Below the pieces are notes generated by a model. The model saw only the letters and a program-made list of their open reading frames with translations. It ran no database searches and was not told the DNA's origin. This document shows, piece by piece, positions 3,214-60,229 of a stretch of 64,000 nt of DNA (position 1 is its first letter; the number at the start of each line of letters is the position of its first letter). This DNA is from Felixounavirus LF82P1. The stretch lies in the sequence record OZ035762.1. One strand, given 5' to 3'. Both the position numbers and the translations under genes were made by a program.

Positions 3214-3819
<606 letters not shown>

Positions 3820-55918: not shown

Positions 55919-56146
55919 GGCAGACCTACAGCTTTAAGTAAGATGGTACAGTAATCCATACAACAAGTCAAGAACTATTGCAAGTTAAAAAAGTTGTTGA
56001 CAAAGTACTTGACAAGGTGTAGGCTTATAAATACTTAGAAGATTACTTAAAAGGTTCCTCTAAAAAGGCTATTTAAACAGATATCTTTCTGGATATCTAT
56101 CTTTTATCTTAAAAGCCTTTTAAGAGGTCTTATAAGAGGCATACCA

Positions 56147-56518
56147 ATGAAAAACAGAACAAACAAAGGCCAGTTTAAAAAAGGCCAATCTGGAAACCCA
56201 TCTGGAAGACCAAAAGGCTCTCGCAACAAAAGCTCACTTGTAAAAGCTCAACTGACCATTGACAATTCTGCTGAGTTTGCTGCAAAGTTATTTGAAGCGA
56301 TTGTTACAAGGGATGCTGCTAAGCTTGCAGAGTTCGGGTTAAACACAGATGACGTAACCATCAAGAGTATGATTGAGGTCGGTAAAACTATCTTTACTCA
56401 CTCAGCAGGTGAGATGAAAGCACTTGCAGCAGACACTAAGAAGACTCCTGATAATGGTGGTCAACAACAGACAGATAACAAACCAACGTTCTCTGCTGTA
56501 GCGACTCTTAAAAAATAA
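56147..56518 (+). CDS. hypothetical protein with GNPSGRPKG motif
   Basis: 123 aa; N-terminal KKGQSGNPSGRPKGSRNK. Confidence 0.45.
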   Translation: MKNRTNKGQFKKGQSGNPSGRPKGSRNKSSLVKAQLTIDNSAEFAAKLFEAIVTRDAAKLAEFGLNTDDVTIKSMIEVGKTIFTHSAGEMKALAADTKKTPDNGGQQQTDNKPTFSAVATLKK

Positions 56519-56599
56519 TTTTAAAAGGTGTTGACAGACTCTATAAAGTTGCTCTAAAGTCTGTCACATCAAACAACAAATGAGAGAAGAGAGTAAAAT

Positions 56600-58015
56600 A
56601 TGAGCGAATTATTTAAACATGCGCACCTTCATGCAGGTCGAACTGAAAATGGTGCTGTAAACCATACTTCATCAATGTCTGCTCTTGTAGACTTTTACAA
56701 AGCTGCTGGTTCAAGCCGTAGCAATGTAGAAATCTTACCAGACCTGTTCTACAAAGCTTTGCGTGAGGATGTTGATGTTGCAGTTCGTATTTTACTGCAT
56801 ATGCGAGATGTACGAGAAGGTATGGGTGAGCGTAAAGCCTTCAGAACTGTTTTGCTTCAAGCAATTGAAGATAAAGTTTTAGAGCCTACACAGGTTCTTC
56901 GCATTATGGATAAGATTGCAGAACTTGGTCGTTTTGATGACTTCAAAATCTTCGTAGGTACTCGTTTCGAGACAGATGCCTTCAAACATTTAGAAGCAGC
57001 ATTACTAGACCCTGCAACAGCAGGTTTGGCAGCTAAGTGGTTACCACGAGTAAAACCACGTCACAAACAGTTTGTAAAACGTTTCTGCAAGTTTGCAAAC
57101 TTGAGTGAGAAGGAGTATCGCACACTGTTATCTGCACTGTCTGATACGGTTGAGCAAAAAATCTCTGCTAATGAGTTTGGTAAGATTGACTACAGTAAGA
57201 TTCCTTCACTTGCTGCTGCACGTTACCAAAAACTCTTTAACCGTAAAGATGGAGAACGCTACAAAGCTTACATTGAGTCCTTATCAAAGGGCGAGACTAA
57301 GATTAATGCTGGTGCTGTTTATCCATACGATGTGATTAAATCTGTTAAGTATGGTAATGCAGATGTTGCTAATGAGCAGTGGAAAGCACTACCAAACTGG
57401 ATGGCAGAGGGTGAAAACATTCTATGTATGTCTGATGTTTCAAGTTCAATGTCTTGGGTGAATTTTGGTTCAATTACTGCTCTTGATATTGGTGTTTCAC
57501 TTGCATTGTATGTAGCAGAACGTAATACAGGTTGCTTTAAGAATGAGTTGATGGTTTATTCAACAAACCCTCACTTCATTGAACTGAGTGGTGATTTACG
57601 AAACCGTCATCGTCAGGTGATGCGACACGTTGAATATGGCTCAACTAACTTACAAGCAGCTTTTGACCGTATTCTTGAGACAGGTAAAAGAAACAACTTG
57701 ACTCAGAAAGATATGCCAAGTAAGCTTATCATCTTCTCCGATATGGAGTTCAATCAGGTTGATGGAGCTAACGGTCGTACAAACTTTGAAGCAATTCAGA
57801 GTAAGTACAAAAAAGCTGGATATGAGATGCCACAACTGGTATTCTGGTACTTAGCAAACCGTAATGGTACTTGCGAAGTATCTGTTAAGGATAACGGTGT
57901 AGCAATGGTATCAGGGTTCTCTCCAGCCACTTTAAAAGCTCTGCTTGGTGGTGAGAAGTTTGACCCAATCAGTGTAATGCTCAAAGCAGTAATGATTGAC
58001 CGTTATATCTGGTAA
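56600..58015 (+). CDS. Ro60-like protein (TROVE-like N-terminus + von Willebrand A domain)
   Basis: 471 aa; C-terminal vWA MIDAS motif CMSDVSSSM then ..GSTN.. and ..FSDMEF..; N-terminal helical region resembling TROVE. Confidence 0.55.
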   Translation: MSELFKHAHLHAGRTENGAVNHTSSMSALVDFYKAAGSSRSNVEILPDLFYKALREDVDVAVRILLHMRDVREGMGERKAFRTVLLQAIEDKVLEPTQVLRIMDKIAELGRFDDFKIFVGTRFETDAFKHLEAALLDPATAGLAAKWLPRVKPRHKQFVKRFCKFANLSEKEYRTLLSALSDTVEQKISANEFGKIDYSKIPSLAAARYQKLFNRKDGERYKAYIESLSKGETKINAGAVYPYDVIKSVKYGNADVANEQWKALPNWMAEGENILCMSDVSSSMSWVNFGSITALDIGVSLALYVAERNTGCFKNELMVYSTNPHFIELSGDLRNRHRQVMRHVEYGSTNLQAAFDRILETGKRNNLTQKDMPSKLIIFSDMEFNQVDGANGRTNFEAIQSKYKKAGYEMPQLVFWYLANRNGTCEVSVKDNGVAMVSGFSPATLKALLGGEKFDPISVMLKAVMIDRYIW

Positions 58016-58033
58016 AAAGTTTTAAAAAGGGTA

Positions 58034-58062
58034 TTGACAATGTGTTTAATACCCTTTAATAT
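58034..58062 (+). promoter_or_regulatory. sigma70-like promoter TTGACA-N17-TAATAT upstream of tRNA cluster
   Basis: Consensus -35, 17-nt spacer, TAATAT -10. Confidence 0.5.
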
Positions 58063-58180
58063 GTTCTACATAGAAGCGAAATGAGAGCTTTTCTAAGATA
58101 CTGAAAAATATTTTAAAAAAGCTCTTGACAACCACTAAAAAATAATGTTAAAGTGGTTACATAGAGTTTGAAAAGTTTAT

Positions 58181-58257
58181 CTCTGTTTAGCTCAGCTTGG
58201 TAGAGCGTTCCGTTTGGGGCGGTAAGGCCGGAGGTTCAAGTCCTCCAACAGAGACCA
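58181..58257 (+). tRNA. tRNA-Pro (anticodon TGG)
   Basis: acceptor CTCTGTT/AACAGAG, anticodon loop TTTGGGG, T-arm GGAGG-TTCAAGT-CCTCC, CCA encoded. Confidence 0.8.
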
Positions 58258-58264
58258 AATTAAT

Positions 58265-58342
58265 GTTCCAGTAGACAAAATGGTATAGTCACCACTCTTT
58301 CAAAGTGGACATCTGAGGGTTCAAATCCCTTCTGGAACGCCA
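58265..58342 (+). tRNA. tRNA-Glu (anticodon TTC)
   Basis: acceptor GTTCCAG/CTGGAAC, anticodon stem CCACT/AGTGG loop CTTTCAA, T-loop TTCAAAT, CCA. Confidence 0.75.
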
Positions 58343-58344
58343 GT

Positions 58345-58425
58345 TTTGACAGAAGACCAAATACAGCAAACTTAATCTTATTCATCTGAAGGTAAATCGG
58401 ACAAAGAAGAGATTTGGTCTGGTCA
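58345..58425 (+). repeat. structured repeat copy 1 (AGACCAAAT ... ATTTGGTCT helix enclosing about 45-nt insert)
   Basis: 9-bp inverted repeat; conserved AGAAGACC..TACAGCAA box. Confidence 0.45.
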
Positions 58426-58433
58426 TTAAGAAT

Positions 58434-58510
58434 TGCGGGTATAGAGAAAGGGCGTCTCACATGTCTCATTAGCATGGTATCGGCAGGTTCGACTCCTGCA
58501 CCCGCCTCCA
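58434..58510 (+). tRNA. tRNA with anticodon CAT (Met/Ile-lysidine type), atypical acceptor
   Basis: D-stem GAGA/TCTC, anticodon stem CATGT/GCATG loop CTCATTA, T-arm GCAGG-TTCGACT-CCTGC, CCA; 1-72 pairing imperfect. Confidence 0.45.
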
Positions 58511-58583
58511 AATTTACAGAAGACCGTTTACAGCAACATTTATTAAATTTTTAGCGGAAAAATTGAAAGATACGGTCTGGTAA
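58511..58583 (+). repeat. structured repeat copy 2 (AGACCGT ... ACGGTCT helix)
   Basis: Box AAATTTACAGAAGACCGTTTACAGCAA identical to copy 4. Confidence 0.45.
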
Positions 58584-58593
58584 TACTAAACAT

Positions 58594-58670
58594 GGTTAGG
58601 AAGCACATAAGGTATGTGCGGTCGCCTGTTAAGCGAATGGCACAGGGTTCGAATCCCTGACTAACCGCCA
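58594..58670 (+). tRNA. tRNA-Asn (anticodon GTT)
   Basis: acceptor GGTTAGG/ACTAACC, D-stem GCAC/GTGC, anticodon loop CTGTTAA, T-arm CAGGG-TTCGAAT-CCCTG, CCA. Confidence 0.75.
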
Positions 58671-58739
58671 AATTTAGGAGAGAAGCGATTGCTCACCGAT
58701 TTGTAAGGTGCAAGTCCTTAGCCTGAATAGAAATTAAAT

Positions 58740-58827
58740 GTGTCGTTATCCCGTAGATGGTAGCGGTGGGGACTGTAAATCCCTTGTCATTGAGACTCGG
58801 TAGGTTCGACTCCTACACGGCACACCA
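58740..58827 (+). tRNA. tRNA-Tyr (anticodon GTA), long variable arm
   Basis: acceptor GTGTCGT/ACGGCAC, anticodon stem GGGGA/TCCCT loop CTGTAAA, variable arm about 15 nt, T-arm GTAGG-TTCGACT-CCTAC, CCA. Confidence 0.75.
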
Positions 58828-58832
58828 ATAAA

Positions 58833-58910
58833 GGTTATGTAGTTTAATTTGGTTAAAATACTCCCCTGTCACGGGAGATGATGAGGGTTCAAATCCCTTC
58901 GTAACCGCCA
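58833..58910 (+). tRNA. tRNA-Asp (anticodon GTC)
   Basis: acceptor GGTTATG/CGTAACC, anticodon stem CTCCC/GGGAG loop CTGTCAC, T-loop TTCAAAT, CCA. Confidence 0.8.
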
Positions 58911-58965
58911 ATTTTGAGAGGGCTATTTAGCCCCTCCCTTAAAGGGTTCTTACGAGTATCCTTTA

Positions 58966-59046
58966 AAGGAGCAGAAGACCAAATACAGCAAGTTACTTAA
59001 AATTTCAAGCCAATTTAATTTTGAAAAATTTAAAACTTGGTCTGGC
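58966..59046 (+). repeat. structured repeat copy 3 (AGACCAA ... TTGGTCT helix)
   Basis: Same conserved box AGAAGACCAAATACAGCAA; compensatory stem changes vs copies 2/4. Confidence 0.45.
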
Positions 59047-59051
59047 TCAAC

Positions 59052-59190
59052 AAATTTACAGAAGACCGTTTACAGCAAAACTTAAACAATCTATTTCTCG
59101 GTAAAGAAAAGGCGAAGGTTCGATTCCTTCACTCGGCAGATGTCGAGTTGGTGTAATGGTAGCACTTAAGATGATAAACAACGGTCTGGT
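59052..59190 (+). ncRNA. candidate Y-RNA-like element: terminal helix (AGACCGTT/AACGGTCT) enclosing a circularly permuted tRNA-like module
   Basis: Order T-arm GAAGG-TTCGATT-CCTTC (59114-59130), acceptor 3' ACTCGGC, 4 nt, acceptor 5' GTCGAGT (7 bp complementary), D-arm-like GGTGTAATGGTAGCAC; no anticodon arm. Confidence 0.35.
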
Positions 59191-59338
59191 AATTATCTTT
59201 GTAGATAAGTTATTAAGCTTACCTGTGAGTATGCGACCACAAAGGGTGAAAGGGTAAATTCTAGATTTAAACCCAAAAAGGCACATCGCTACAGACCTTA
59301 AGCAAGTCTGGGTAGCTTATCTACAAAGATAATTTAAT

Positions 59339-59414
59339 GGAAGTGTAGCAGAATGGTGATGCGGCAGACTTTTAATCTGACAGGCGATGGGTTCGAATCC
59401 CTCCACTTCTACCA
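59339..59414 (+). tRNA. tRNA-Lys (anticodon TTT)
   Basis: acceptor GGAAGTG/CACTTCT, anticodon loop CTTTTAA, T-loop TTCGAAT, CCA; paralog of Lys-CTT tRNA with compensatory anticodon-stem change. Confidence 0.7.
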
Positions 59415-59418
59415 ATAT

Positions 59419-59495
59419 GGTTCAGTCGCAGATAAGGTAATGCAAGGGTCTCATAAGCCCTATGAATGTGGGTTCGAATCCCATCTGAACCTCCA
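59419..59495 (+). tRNA. tRNA-Met (anticodon CAT)
   Basis: acceptor GGTTCAG/CTGAACC, anticodon stem AGGGT/GCCCT loop CTCATAA, T-arm GTGGG-TTCGAAT-CCCAT, CCA. Confidence 0.75.
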
Positions 59496-59497
59496 AT

Positions 59498-59572
59498 TGT
59501 GGGTTAGCATAAATGGTAATGCAAACGGCTGATAACCGTTAGAAGAGGGTTCGATACCCTCACCTACAACCA
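59498..59572 (+). tRNA. tRNA-Ile (anticodon GAT)
   Basis: acceptor TGTGGGT/ACCTACA, D-stem GCAT/ATGC, anticodon stem AACGG/CCGTT loop CTGATAA, T-arm GAGGG-TTCGATA-CCCTC, CCA. Confidence 0.75.
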
Positions 59573-59587
59573 AGTTCAATAAAGTTG

Positions 59588-59616
59588 TTGACATTGAGAT
59601 GTGACTACTTTATAGT
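59588..59616 (+). promoter_or_regulatory. sigma70-like promoter TTGACA-N17-TATAGT inside tRNA cluster
   Basis: Near-consensus -35 and -10 with 17-nt spacer. Confidence 0.55.
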
Positions 59617-59820
59617 AACCTTAGTTTTCGTTGCGTAGCGTCTATTTTGCAAATTTAAAATAAATGCAAACGACAATGTTTTTCTGGCAGTAGCTTGATA
59701 GGCTAAACACCAGTGAGGTCTTCCAATCCCTCATCAAAGAATTTGGCGTACTCGCCCACGGTATGATTAATAAGGTGGGCATCTTTAAGGGCTTTCTAAG
59801 AGAGTCTTTAAAGATAATTA

Positions 59821-59902
59821 CGGGGCGTATCTCAGCGGTCTTCTAAACCGCCGTTAACCGAGTAAGTGGAGTATGCGGGTTCGAGTCCTGCCGCCTCGAC
59901 CA
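59821..59902 (+). tRNA. atypical tRNA-like gene, anticodon loop CTTCTAA (TCT, Arg-type), D-arm apparently absent
   Basis: acceptor CGGGGCG/CGCCTCG, perfect anticodon arm GCGGT-CTTCTAA-ACCGC, T-arm GCGGG-TTCGAGT-CCTGC, CCA; only 7 nt between acceptor and anticodon stem, 23-nt region before T-arm. Confidence 0.4.
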
Positions 59903-60045
59903 ATTTAGTTAGCAGATTACTTAGACGACCTAAGCGGGTCTTCCTGTAGGGAGGTGGTCTGTATCTCATGTTTTCCAGAACATGTAAATAATCTGAGAAG
60001 GGGCTTTACAGTGTTGAGATAATACGGTAAGCTTCGAATTATAGT

Positions 60046-60128
60046 ATGGGACGATGTTAAGACTCTAAGGCATGAGCAACGGCCTCCAAAACCGTTTCAA
60101 AGGGGTTCAACTCCTCCGTCCCATGCCA
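60046..60128 (+). tRNA. tRNA-Trp (anticodon CCA), atypical extended D region
   Basis: acceptor ATGGGAC/GTCCCAT, anticodon loop CTCCAAA with stem ACGGC/ACCGT, T-loop TTCAACT, CCA; about 8 extra nt before D-stem. Confidence 0.45.
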
Positions 60129-60141
60129 AAGTCTTATTAGG

Positions 60142-60229
60142 GGTAGGTAGCGGCTAATGGCAGCCAAACAGTCTTGAAAACTGTTGCCACTGTAGAGATA
60201 CGGTGAGGGTTCGACTCCTTTACTTACCG
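60142..60229 (+). tRNA. tRNA-Ser (anticodon TGA), long variable arm
   Basis: acceptor GGTAGGT/ACTTACC, 3-bp D-stem, anticodon arm ACAGT-CTTGAAA-ACTGT, about 20-nt variable arm, T-loop TTCGACT; CCA not encoded. Confidence 0.7.

Follow-up and report, generated by a model that had tools for sequence, protein, structure and literature searches.

We analysed a window of 64,000 nt from Felixounavirus LF82P1 (sequence record OZ035762.1), in which a coding sequence (CDS) for a 471-aa protein is followed on the same strand by a tRNA cluster containing four structured RNA modules, here called M1 to M4. Taken together, the evidence makes it likely that the CDS encodes a divergent Ro60-like protein and that M1–M4 are its putative cognate Y-RNA-like small RNAs. 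Positions 56000–60000 are 100% identical to OZ035741 and 96–98% identical to many Felix O1-type phages, which places the DNA in Felixounavirus. The features under discussion are as follows.

56531..56560 (+): sigma-70-type promoter of the Ro60-like gene, TTGACA-18-TAAAGT, 10 of 12 consensus matches, lying within an inverted repeat
56600..58015 (+): predicted Ro60-like ring protein of 471 aa, with a helical TROVE-like repeat domain and vWA/MIDAS; DUF2828 and DUF7788; ortholog of Bas63 gp130
58125..58154 (+): promoter of the tRNA/small-RNA transcription unit containing M1–M4, from a promoter scan
58347..58425 (+): M1, between tRNA-Glu and tRNA-Met; outer helix 58347–58350/58422–58425, AGA/G loop, stem 58354–58362/58412–58420, ACAGCAA 58363–58369, variable interior
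58514..58583 (+): M2, between tRNA-Met and tRNA-Asn; outer helix 58514–58517/58580–58583, stem 58521–58527/58572–58578, UU-ACAGCAA 58528–58536
58969..59048 (+): M3; outer helix 58969–58972/59045–59048 (GAGC/GCUC), stem 58976–58982/59037–59043, AU-ACAGCAA 58983–58991
59056..59192 (+): M4, the YrlA-type member; outer helix 59056–59059/59189–59192, stem 59063–59070/59180–59187, ACAGCAA 59072–59078
59090..59166 (+): insert of M4; V hairpin 59090–59112, T arm 59114–59130, closed acceptor-like stem 59131–59148, D arm 59150–59166

A preliminary description of this DNA, made from the sequence alone, had placed the CDS at 56600–58015 and noted the motifs CMSDVSSSM, GSTN and FSDMEF; the coordinates and motifs are all correct. 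The protein contains a complete MIDAS motif (DxSxS...T...D), whose residues D279, S281, S283, T349 and D381 were invariant in 39 homologues. It passed the Pfam gathering thresholds of both DUF7788 (148.8 bits, cut-off 27.1) and DUF2828 (102.2 bits, cut-off 29), and matched PHROG 850 ‘RNA-binding protein’ at E 4e-184. A search of NCBIfam matched no family, and phmmer with the single sequence found no match in the PDB. An AlphaFold model built from the alignment of 39 homologues reached a predicted local distance difference test score (pLDDT) of 87.8 and a predicted template modelling score (pTM) of 0.88. When this predicted structure was compared with the PDB by Foldseek, the best nine matches were all Ro60/Rsr/TROVE chains (E 5e-9 to 4e-7), namely the Thermus phage phiRo60 (9KOP, the best match), Xenopus and human Ro60, and Deinococcus Rsr. 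The Ro60-type matches extended over the full length of the fold, with 523–557 aligned columns and TM scores of 0.50–0.65, and isolated vWA domains appeared only from E 1e-3, behind the Ro60-type chains. As judged from the predicted structure, the CDS encodes a Ro60-like ring protein that is divergent and belongs to the DUF2828/DUF7788 family. The earlier proposal of a TROVE-like helical region joined to a vWA domain thus stands as regards the full-length Ro60/Rsr fold and the MIDAS motif, and fails as regards the Pfam TROVE profile: profile searches for TROVE, DUF2828 and vWA produced matches to DUF2828 and DUF7788 and none to TROVE.

The RNA had been described as a single module embedded in the tRNA cluster. 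Its place in the cluster is correct, but there are four modules, since three siblings lacking the tRNA-like insert had gone unnoticed. On the ARAGORN tRNA map, M1–M4 occupy the spacers between tRNA-Glu, Met, Asn ... Asp and Lys. They share a fold consisting of an outer 4-bp helix (UGAC/GUCA, UUAC/GUAA or GAGC/GCUC among the four), an asymmetric AGA/G loop, a 7–9-bp stem, a single-stranded (U)UACAGCAA and a variable interior; the earlier account had the helices right and overlooked UACAGCAA, the outer helix and the AGA/G loop. The stem follows the scheme AGACCnnn/nnnGGUCU, the enclosing helix covaries among the four paralogues (AAA/UUU versus GUU/AAC), and compensatory changes are found in both helices. 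A repeat search of the window returned four copies of CAGAAGACC(AAA|GTT)TACAGCAA (family D7), with ...GGTCTGG downstream. The module exceeds chance expectation, because the pattern AGAAGACC-N-GGTCTGG occurred three times in the window at the allowed spacing and never in 100 shuffles. The only significant matches in the window to R1, a covariance model built from modules of many loci (below), were M1–M3 (E 9e-5 to 0.075), with M2 at 28.3 bits (E 9e-5) and M3 at 22.6 bits (E 0.003). R1 depends on local ends, so that long modules are missed or shortened (M4 was not found and M1 was mis-paired) and its counts are undercounts.

After the promoter at 58125, the next one lies at 59588, and no plus-strand terminator was found between them. 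The sequences TTGACA/TTTACA over the outer helices were considered as −35 boxes and rejected, as no acceptable −10 accompanies them and the promoter scan gives none there. The tRNA spacers 58671–58740 and 58911–58972 (+) form hairpins more stable than shuffles (z −2.4 and −2.7) and have no ACAGCAA motif. At the promoter of the Ro60-like gene, the overlapping inverted repeat GACAGACT...AGTCTGTC (56533–56565) gave a weak R1 match on its minus strand (11.9 bits, E 1.5), where it reads UUAGAGCAA instead of UUACAGCAA; this could be an operator or a coincidence.

Among the four modules, M4 alone carries an insert of V hairpin, T arm, closed acceptor-like stem and D arm. The minimum-free-energy fold of 59055–59193 reproduced every helix described for it: the enclosing helix AGACCGTT (59063–59070)/AACGGTCT (59180–59187), the T arm GAAGG-TTCGATT-CCTTC (59114–59130), the acceptor-like stem of ACTCGGC (59131–59137) and GTCGAGT (59142–59148) closed by AGAT, and the D arm starting at 59150. 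The module structure and coordinates given by the preliminary description are thereby confirmed. The same fold contains an extra hairpin at 59090–59112, 5′ of the T arm, which corresponds to the ‘V’ arm in YrlA nomenclature; given this hairpin, the statement that the module has no anticodon arm is only roughly right.

M4 could also be viewed as the decaying, functionless site at which a tRNA gene and its identical tandem duplicate meet, flanked by spacer repeats of the cluster. At such a site one would expect the order T arm, 3′ acceptor, spacer, 5′ acceptor and D arm, and three parts of M4 do align to the Rfam tRNA model: V hairpin, T arm and the 3′ strand of the acceptor. This match is incomplete, however, and reaches 14.9 bits against a threshold of 29; ARAGORN finds no tRNA gene at 59056–59192, and the acceptor loop has only 4 nt, with neither CCA nor spacer. 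Decay is also at odds with comparisons among related phages, where the permuted tRNA-like module is conserved and covaries. M4 is kept in 245 of 252 matching phage records, and in an alignment of Felixounavirus, Suspvirus and Mooglevirus its flanks, T arm and D arm are invariant, whereas the acceptor-like stem occurs in three versions across the Ounavirinae (ACUCGGC/GUCGAGU, ACACGU/GCGUGU and ACCCUUC/GAAGGGU), 100% paired and with compensatory changes at 3 of 7 pairs. The same architecture recurs with unrelated sequence in Mycobacterium phage BigCheese, Klebsiella phage FBKp34 and the homologous loci L019 and L071. On the conservation, covariation and recurrence of the M4 architecture we rejected the tandem-tRNA remnant, which we regard as exceedingly improbable.

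The association of gene and modules was then examined in distant phages. A protein-led sample of 81 loci was fetched through homologues of the CDS, mostly 39–47% identical. In these loci the gene strand held 150 copies of ACAGCAA and the opposite strand 54, with about 50 expected per strand, and a descriptor of stem plus motif found 91 and 13 modules, respectively. The stem was present at 57% of real ACAGCAA motifs compared with 25% in shuffles, and a signature that had not been imposed (AG opening and CU-G closing the stem) was found in 54 of 82 distinct modules. A full-length MAFFT alignment of the short modules (A2) misplaced inner 3′ stem bases and was replaced by a trimmed, gap-free alignment of 37 columns (A3), in whose 44 modules 6 of 7 stem pairs show compensatory changes and the 3′ G is invariant. 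R1, built from A3, was run on 76 loci at E≤1, and all 37 of its matches fell on the gene strand, 18 of them outside the seed. Of the 75 non-Felix loci, 42 had at least one module; the median distance to the gene was 265 nt, and no module lay within the gene.

The reverse scan started from the RNA only. The pattern AAAGGNNNNNTACAGCAA-N25-55-CCTGA, which does not require pairing, was searched in 2.9 million viral contigs and gave 76 matches, of which 39 had 7/7 stem pairs (chance about 2%, with four free positions) in at least 16 different stem sequences. A DUF2828 homologue was found in the fetched locus of 30 of the 45 stem-forming matches and of 1 of the 31 non-pairing ones; all 30 homologues were on the same strand as the module, mostly 16–700 nt away. 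The strand counts of the motif in the 81 loci, the R1 matches and this RNA-only scan are the unbiased figures.

Stem-plus-ACAGCAA modules stand beside DUF2828 genes in phages of Mycobacterium, Listeria, Staphylococcus, Campylobacter, Vibrio and Klebsiella and in viral metagenomes. Arrangements in cultured phages include the following.

Listeria phage List-36: three modules upstream of the gene, with an RtcB-type ligase 1.3 kb downstream
Campylobacter phage CP81: two modules upstream of the gene
Vibrio phage XZ1: one module in the 5′ untranslated region (UTR) of the gene
Staphylococcus phage 6ec: three modules downstream of the gene
Klebsiella phage FBKp34: three to four modules downstream of the gene, one with a textbook T arm, 7-bp closed acceptor and D arm

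In BigCheese, a cluster L phage, the DUF2828/DUF7788 protein is annotated as ‘Ro-like RNA binding protein’ and is 33% identical to the CDS. Its gene is followed by three modules of the form GUGGACnn-UA(A)CAGCAA...nnGUCCAGU, the middle one combining T and D arms with a closed acceptor stem of 7 bp. Locus L019 contains two short modules and one tRNA-like module, and this combination of one tRNA-like module with short ones is shared by Felix-type phages, BigCheese, L019 and FBKp34. The protein fold, the RNA structures with their covariation and the linkage of gene and RNAs are shown by the present data. These results support the Ro60-like protein and the Y-like RNAs as candidate partners, and the recurrence of the pairing in very distant phages points to an undescribed branch of the Ro60/Y-RNA system. 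Because the terminal stem and the single-stranded ACAGCAA are conserved while the interiors differ, the modules appear to follow the logic of Y RNAs, in which a common protein-binding module is combined with a variable effector module.

In several loci, minimal modules of 35–50 nt were found in the 5′ UTR of the DUF2828 gene, with the 3′ strand abutting the Shine-Dalgarno sequence.

L011, 1761–1798: leader module
L014, 2856–2893: leader module
L024, 4947–4988: leader module
L028, 4900–4940: leader module
L048, 4904–4946: leader module
L162, 1961–2009: leader module

A copy just before the Shine-Dalgarno sequence is what would be expected of a protein-binding site, and the leader modules suggest that the protein recognises the element and may autoregulate its translation. 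This raises the alternative that the modules are purely cis elements, acting as operators on their own mRNA, as signals for tRNA-precursor processing, or both, and being degraded after cleavage. The leader position in L011, L014, L024, L028, L048 and Vibrio XZ1 fits that explanation, as does the fact that the modules of the window exactly fill tRNA spacers. Autoregulation leaves unexplained, however, the tandem arrays of three to four downstream modules with elaborate and differing interiors in the window, BigCheese, 6ec and FBKp34. In M4-type modules, moreover, the tRNA-like domain is complete and the nucleotides of its tertiary interactions are conserved; in YrlA, such a domain stabilises and modifies a free RNA. 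Cis and trans roles are also compatible with each other, and we consider an exclusively cis function unlikely.

Loci with DUF2828 genes often adjoin RNA-repair or translation genes (L160, L113, L110, L146, L116, L120 and L131). In List-36 (L160, 4075–5455), an HD phosphohydrolase and an RtcB-type ‘tRNA splicing ligase’ lie near the DUF2828 gene, and several viral contigs have large tRNA arrays and tmRNA (transfer-messenger RNA) genes nearby. The genomes of cluster L mycobacteriophages, too, include genes for an RNA ligase and a polynucleotide kinase (PMC13148394).

The CDS is the ortholog of bas63_0130 (gp130 of Bas63, Escherichia phage JohannRWettstein), with the same length and position, and the DNA of M4 is 98% identical between the two phages. 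Bas63 gp130 structurally resembles Ro60 and counters the ppl defence (PhageMaP preprint, PMC11482910). The authors of that work offered, as speculation only, that ‘some tRNA genes are possibly Y RNAs’ (PMC11482910), whereas the candidate Y-like RNAs described here sit in tRNA spacers and not in annotated tRNAs.

Several results weigh against a Ro60-like protein paired with M1–M4. Pfam TROVE is absent for the CDS even at E≤1, where only DUF7788 and DUF2828 appear, and a profile of the 39 homologues reached Ro60 in the PDB at E 0.32 over the MIDAS stretch only. The covariance search proposed with the preliminary description came out negative, as Rfam YrlA (RF02553) and Y RNA gave no match at E≤10 over 58000–60200 or 59050–59200. 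In relatives, the tRNA-like module of L019 (39.2 bits, E 4e-5), L071 (26.7 bits) and the middle module of BigCheese (21.7 bits, a weak match) were found by the YrlA model, whose gathering score is 69; no phage module, those of 13 further loci included, reached the gathering score of YrlA or of the Class I RNAs discussed below. A3 was selected for pairing, which makes its figure of 99% paired circular, and 33 of 75 non-Felix loci lack a detectable module. Lastly, gp130 moved alone into T7 rescues the phage on ppl hosts (PMC11482910). Since gp130 defeats ppl there without M1–M4, the phage RNAs are dispensable for the anti-ppl activity, and they may serve another or a broader role.

The T7 result also favours an explanation in which the RNAs work without the protein. 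They could, for instance, serve as decoys of tRNA-like or stem type that divert defence sensors or those host nucleases that attack tRNAs; gene and RNAs would then be adjacent only because they belong to the same counter-defence pathway. The frequent location of the loci within tRNA clusters or beside RNA-repair genes, such as the RtcB-type ligase of List-36, is in keeping with this. Yet the strict same-strand, near-adjacent linkage also holds where the locus has no tRNA genes (BigCheese, L063 and L009), the conserved part is the stem-plus-ACAGCAA module and not the variable interior, and the motif is present in the gene's own leader. These three observations point to direct recognition by the encoded protein, and we judge independent decoys to be very unlikely.

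For the preferred reading, a Ro60-like protein with cognate Y-like RNAs, the following mechanism can be proposed. M1–M4 would be transcribed together with the tRNAs from the promoter at 58125 and released when the nucleases of tRNA processing cleave the tRNAs on either side. The protein would recognise a shared putative binding module, made up of the terminal stem closed by A-U/G-C, the following 3′ G and the single-stranded (U)UACAGCAA next to the 5′ strand. Each RNA would then offer a different ‘effector’ interior, that of M4 being a tRNA mimic built from T and D arms and a closed acceptor stem, and could tether or gate the ring toward host RNA-handling enzymes or damaged RNAs during infection. 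Binding, processing and nuclease tethering are proposed here by analogy with Rsr–YrlA–PNPase and phiRo60–Yrl–PNPase.

This proposal gives the large DUF2828/DUF7788 family a candidate, testable function as a Ro60-like ribonucleoprotein (RNP) with its own class of RNA ligand. The RNA element is small (35–60 nt) and easily mutated, and the system is found in Felix O1/Bas63, P100-type Listeria phages, Campylobacter and KVP40-type phages and cluster L mycobacteriophages. Given the ppl counter-defence phenotype of the protein, the RNAs are candidates for the means by which a phage turns a Ro-like ring towards the RNA metabolism or defence of its host. In the literature searched, itself incomplete in coverage, we found no functional study of DUF2828/DUF7788 or of these RNAs.

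A further, very stable structured element (−48.3 kcal/mol, z −7.2) directly follows M4 at 59190–59338 (+); in it, a closing stem of 24 bp encloses three small hairpins. Felixounavirus, Suspvirus and Mooglevirus all conserve it, with compensatory changes at 6 pairs; it contains no ACAGCAA motif, and an Rfam scan of it gave no match. In Bas63, the minus-strand ‘hypothetical protein’ bas63_0137 overlies M4 and bas63_0138 overlies this next element. Minus-strand open reading frames (ORFs) cover the same elements at 59056–59286 (−) in the window and at 3522–3674 and 3686–3796 (−) in L086. Such calls, which current phage annotation places over these RNA genes in Bas63 and other records, are probably spurious. 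Farther downstream, after tRNA-Ile, we detected weak matches to permuted tmRNA (31.4 bits, gathering score 47) and tmRNA at 59515–59698 and 59630–59819 (+), and a tmRNA-type match of 29.9 bits occupies the equivalent position in Citrobacter phage HP1 (L083, 3947–4133); these may represent a divergent tmRNA-like gene or chance. The Rfam tRNA model scored 31.7 bits at 59821–59899 (+), a site missed by ARAGORN, and Bas63 has an annotated tRNA-Arg at the corresponding place, after tRNA-Ile and a minus-strand ORF, as matched by gene order and not by alignment. A tRNA-Sec-like match of 23 bits at 60048–60122 (+) may be a further degenerate or unusual tRNA.

The modules also resemble the Class I RNAs of Dictyostelium. 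Rfam RF01414 (Dicty_Class_I_RNA) recurrently matched modules at their exact positions and on the correct strand, with 13–30.7 bits, all under the gathering score of 41.5. The matches, BigCheese and HP1 being among the matched phages, include these.

58522–58579: M2 of the window, 17.1 bits
59064–59188: M4 of the window, 13 bits
L042, 6692–6749: best match, 30.7 bits
L021, 6399–6456
L016, 1535–1592
L047, 3960–4017
L082, 4511–4557
L083, 3014–3072

Class I RNAs are multi-copy RNAs of about 60 nt whose interior varies; their terminal stem has 6 bp and begins with G, and they end in a 3′ C-UG (PMC7919456). In them, a single-stranded 11-nt motif, CCUUACAGCAA, lies directly 3′ of the 5′ strand, and the phage modules have a similar layout. 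M2 and M4 share 9 of the 11 nt (UUACAGCAA) with this motif and differ from it at the first two positions; layout and 3′ UG agree. DdR-21 reads GUUGAC-CUU-ACAGCAA...GUCAAC-UG where a phage module reads GGUUCC-UU-ACAGCAA...GGAACC-UG, the spacing from stem to ACAGCAA being 1 nt shorter in the phage modules. Unlike the phage modules, Class I RNAs come from eukaryotic genes that have a DUSE promoter.

The sole proven direct binder of Class I RNA is the RRM protein Rnp1A/CIBP; a DdR-21 pull-down contained Rnp1A/CIBP, GuaB, NdkC and DDB_G0281243, a protein of unknown function. The Class I covariance model also found an Arabidopsis candidate, ath_can_1 (UGUUUUC-AUU-ACAGCAA...GAAAAC-UG, score 40; PMC7919456 supplement), which Kjellin et al. 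set aside for want of a dictyostelid promoter (PMC7919456). Plants encode DUF2828 proteins, and Pfam records the family in eukaryotes. One could speculate, although we hold it to be doubtful, that the stem-(U)UACAGCAA-...-stem-UG RNA is a universal ligand of the DUF2828/DUF7788 branch, that Class I RNAs are its eukaryotic members, and that a DUF2828-type protein, conceivably DDB_G0281243, is their missing partner. If so, an ‘amoeba-specific’ RNA would become part of an ancient Ro-like RNP that phages possess as well. Class I RNAs have been an abundant and developmentally important orphan class of non-coding RNA since 2004, and common ancestry, if real, would make a question of about 20 years testable; the resemblance remains a lead.

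Small stable non-tRNA RNAs that are co-transcribed and co-processed with phage tRNAs exist in T4 as species 1 and 2 (rnaC and rnaD); to our knowledge, T4 has no DUF2828 gene. Known pairs of a Ro60-type protein and Y RNAs include Rsr with YrlA/YrlB in Salmonella and M. smegmatis and systems of cluster C mycobacteriophages (PMC4201824), together with phiRo60 and Yrl1/Yrl2 of the Thermus phage phiLo (PMC12135203; PDB 9KOP/9L5Y). According to Chen et al., YrlA has the order V-T-AS-D, its T and D arms being nearly invariant and the stem between them variable but paired (PMC4201824). M4, with V, T, closed acceptor and D enclosed by a terminal helix, has exactly this architecture, as the preliminary description had proposed. 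The phage differs in other respects. Its protein belongs to Pfam DUF2828/DUF7788 instead of TROVE, and M1–M4 are embedded in a tRNA operon. The RNAs also lack GNCGAA(N)G/CGAA and carry stem-(U)UACAGCAA with a 3′ G instead; in M4, whose 5′ strand is UUACAGAAGACC, the YrlA 5′ GNCGAA(N)G, the proposed Rsr contact, is absent, and the nearest sequence, ACAGAAG, is off at two specified positions. We file the pair apart from Rsr/YrlA because the TROVE test, the Rfam threshold and GNCGAA(N)G all fail. The ring-plus-vWA fold is nevertheless common to Rsr, phiRo60 and the phage CDS, as is a genomic context of RNA repair and tRNAs. In all of them, several small RNAs are encoded on the same strand within about 1 kb; here M1 starts 332 nt and M4 1041 nt after the stop codon of the CDS, on the plus strand and inside the roughly 4 kb used as a criterion for YrlA. 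One V-T-closed acceptor-D tRNA mimic accompanied by short RNAs is likewise shared, and so is a terminal helix that joins the 5′ and 3′ ends. We class the CDS and its candidate RNAs as a new variant of the Ro60/Y RNA kind and not as members of Rsr/YrlA.

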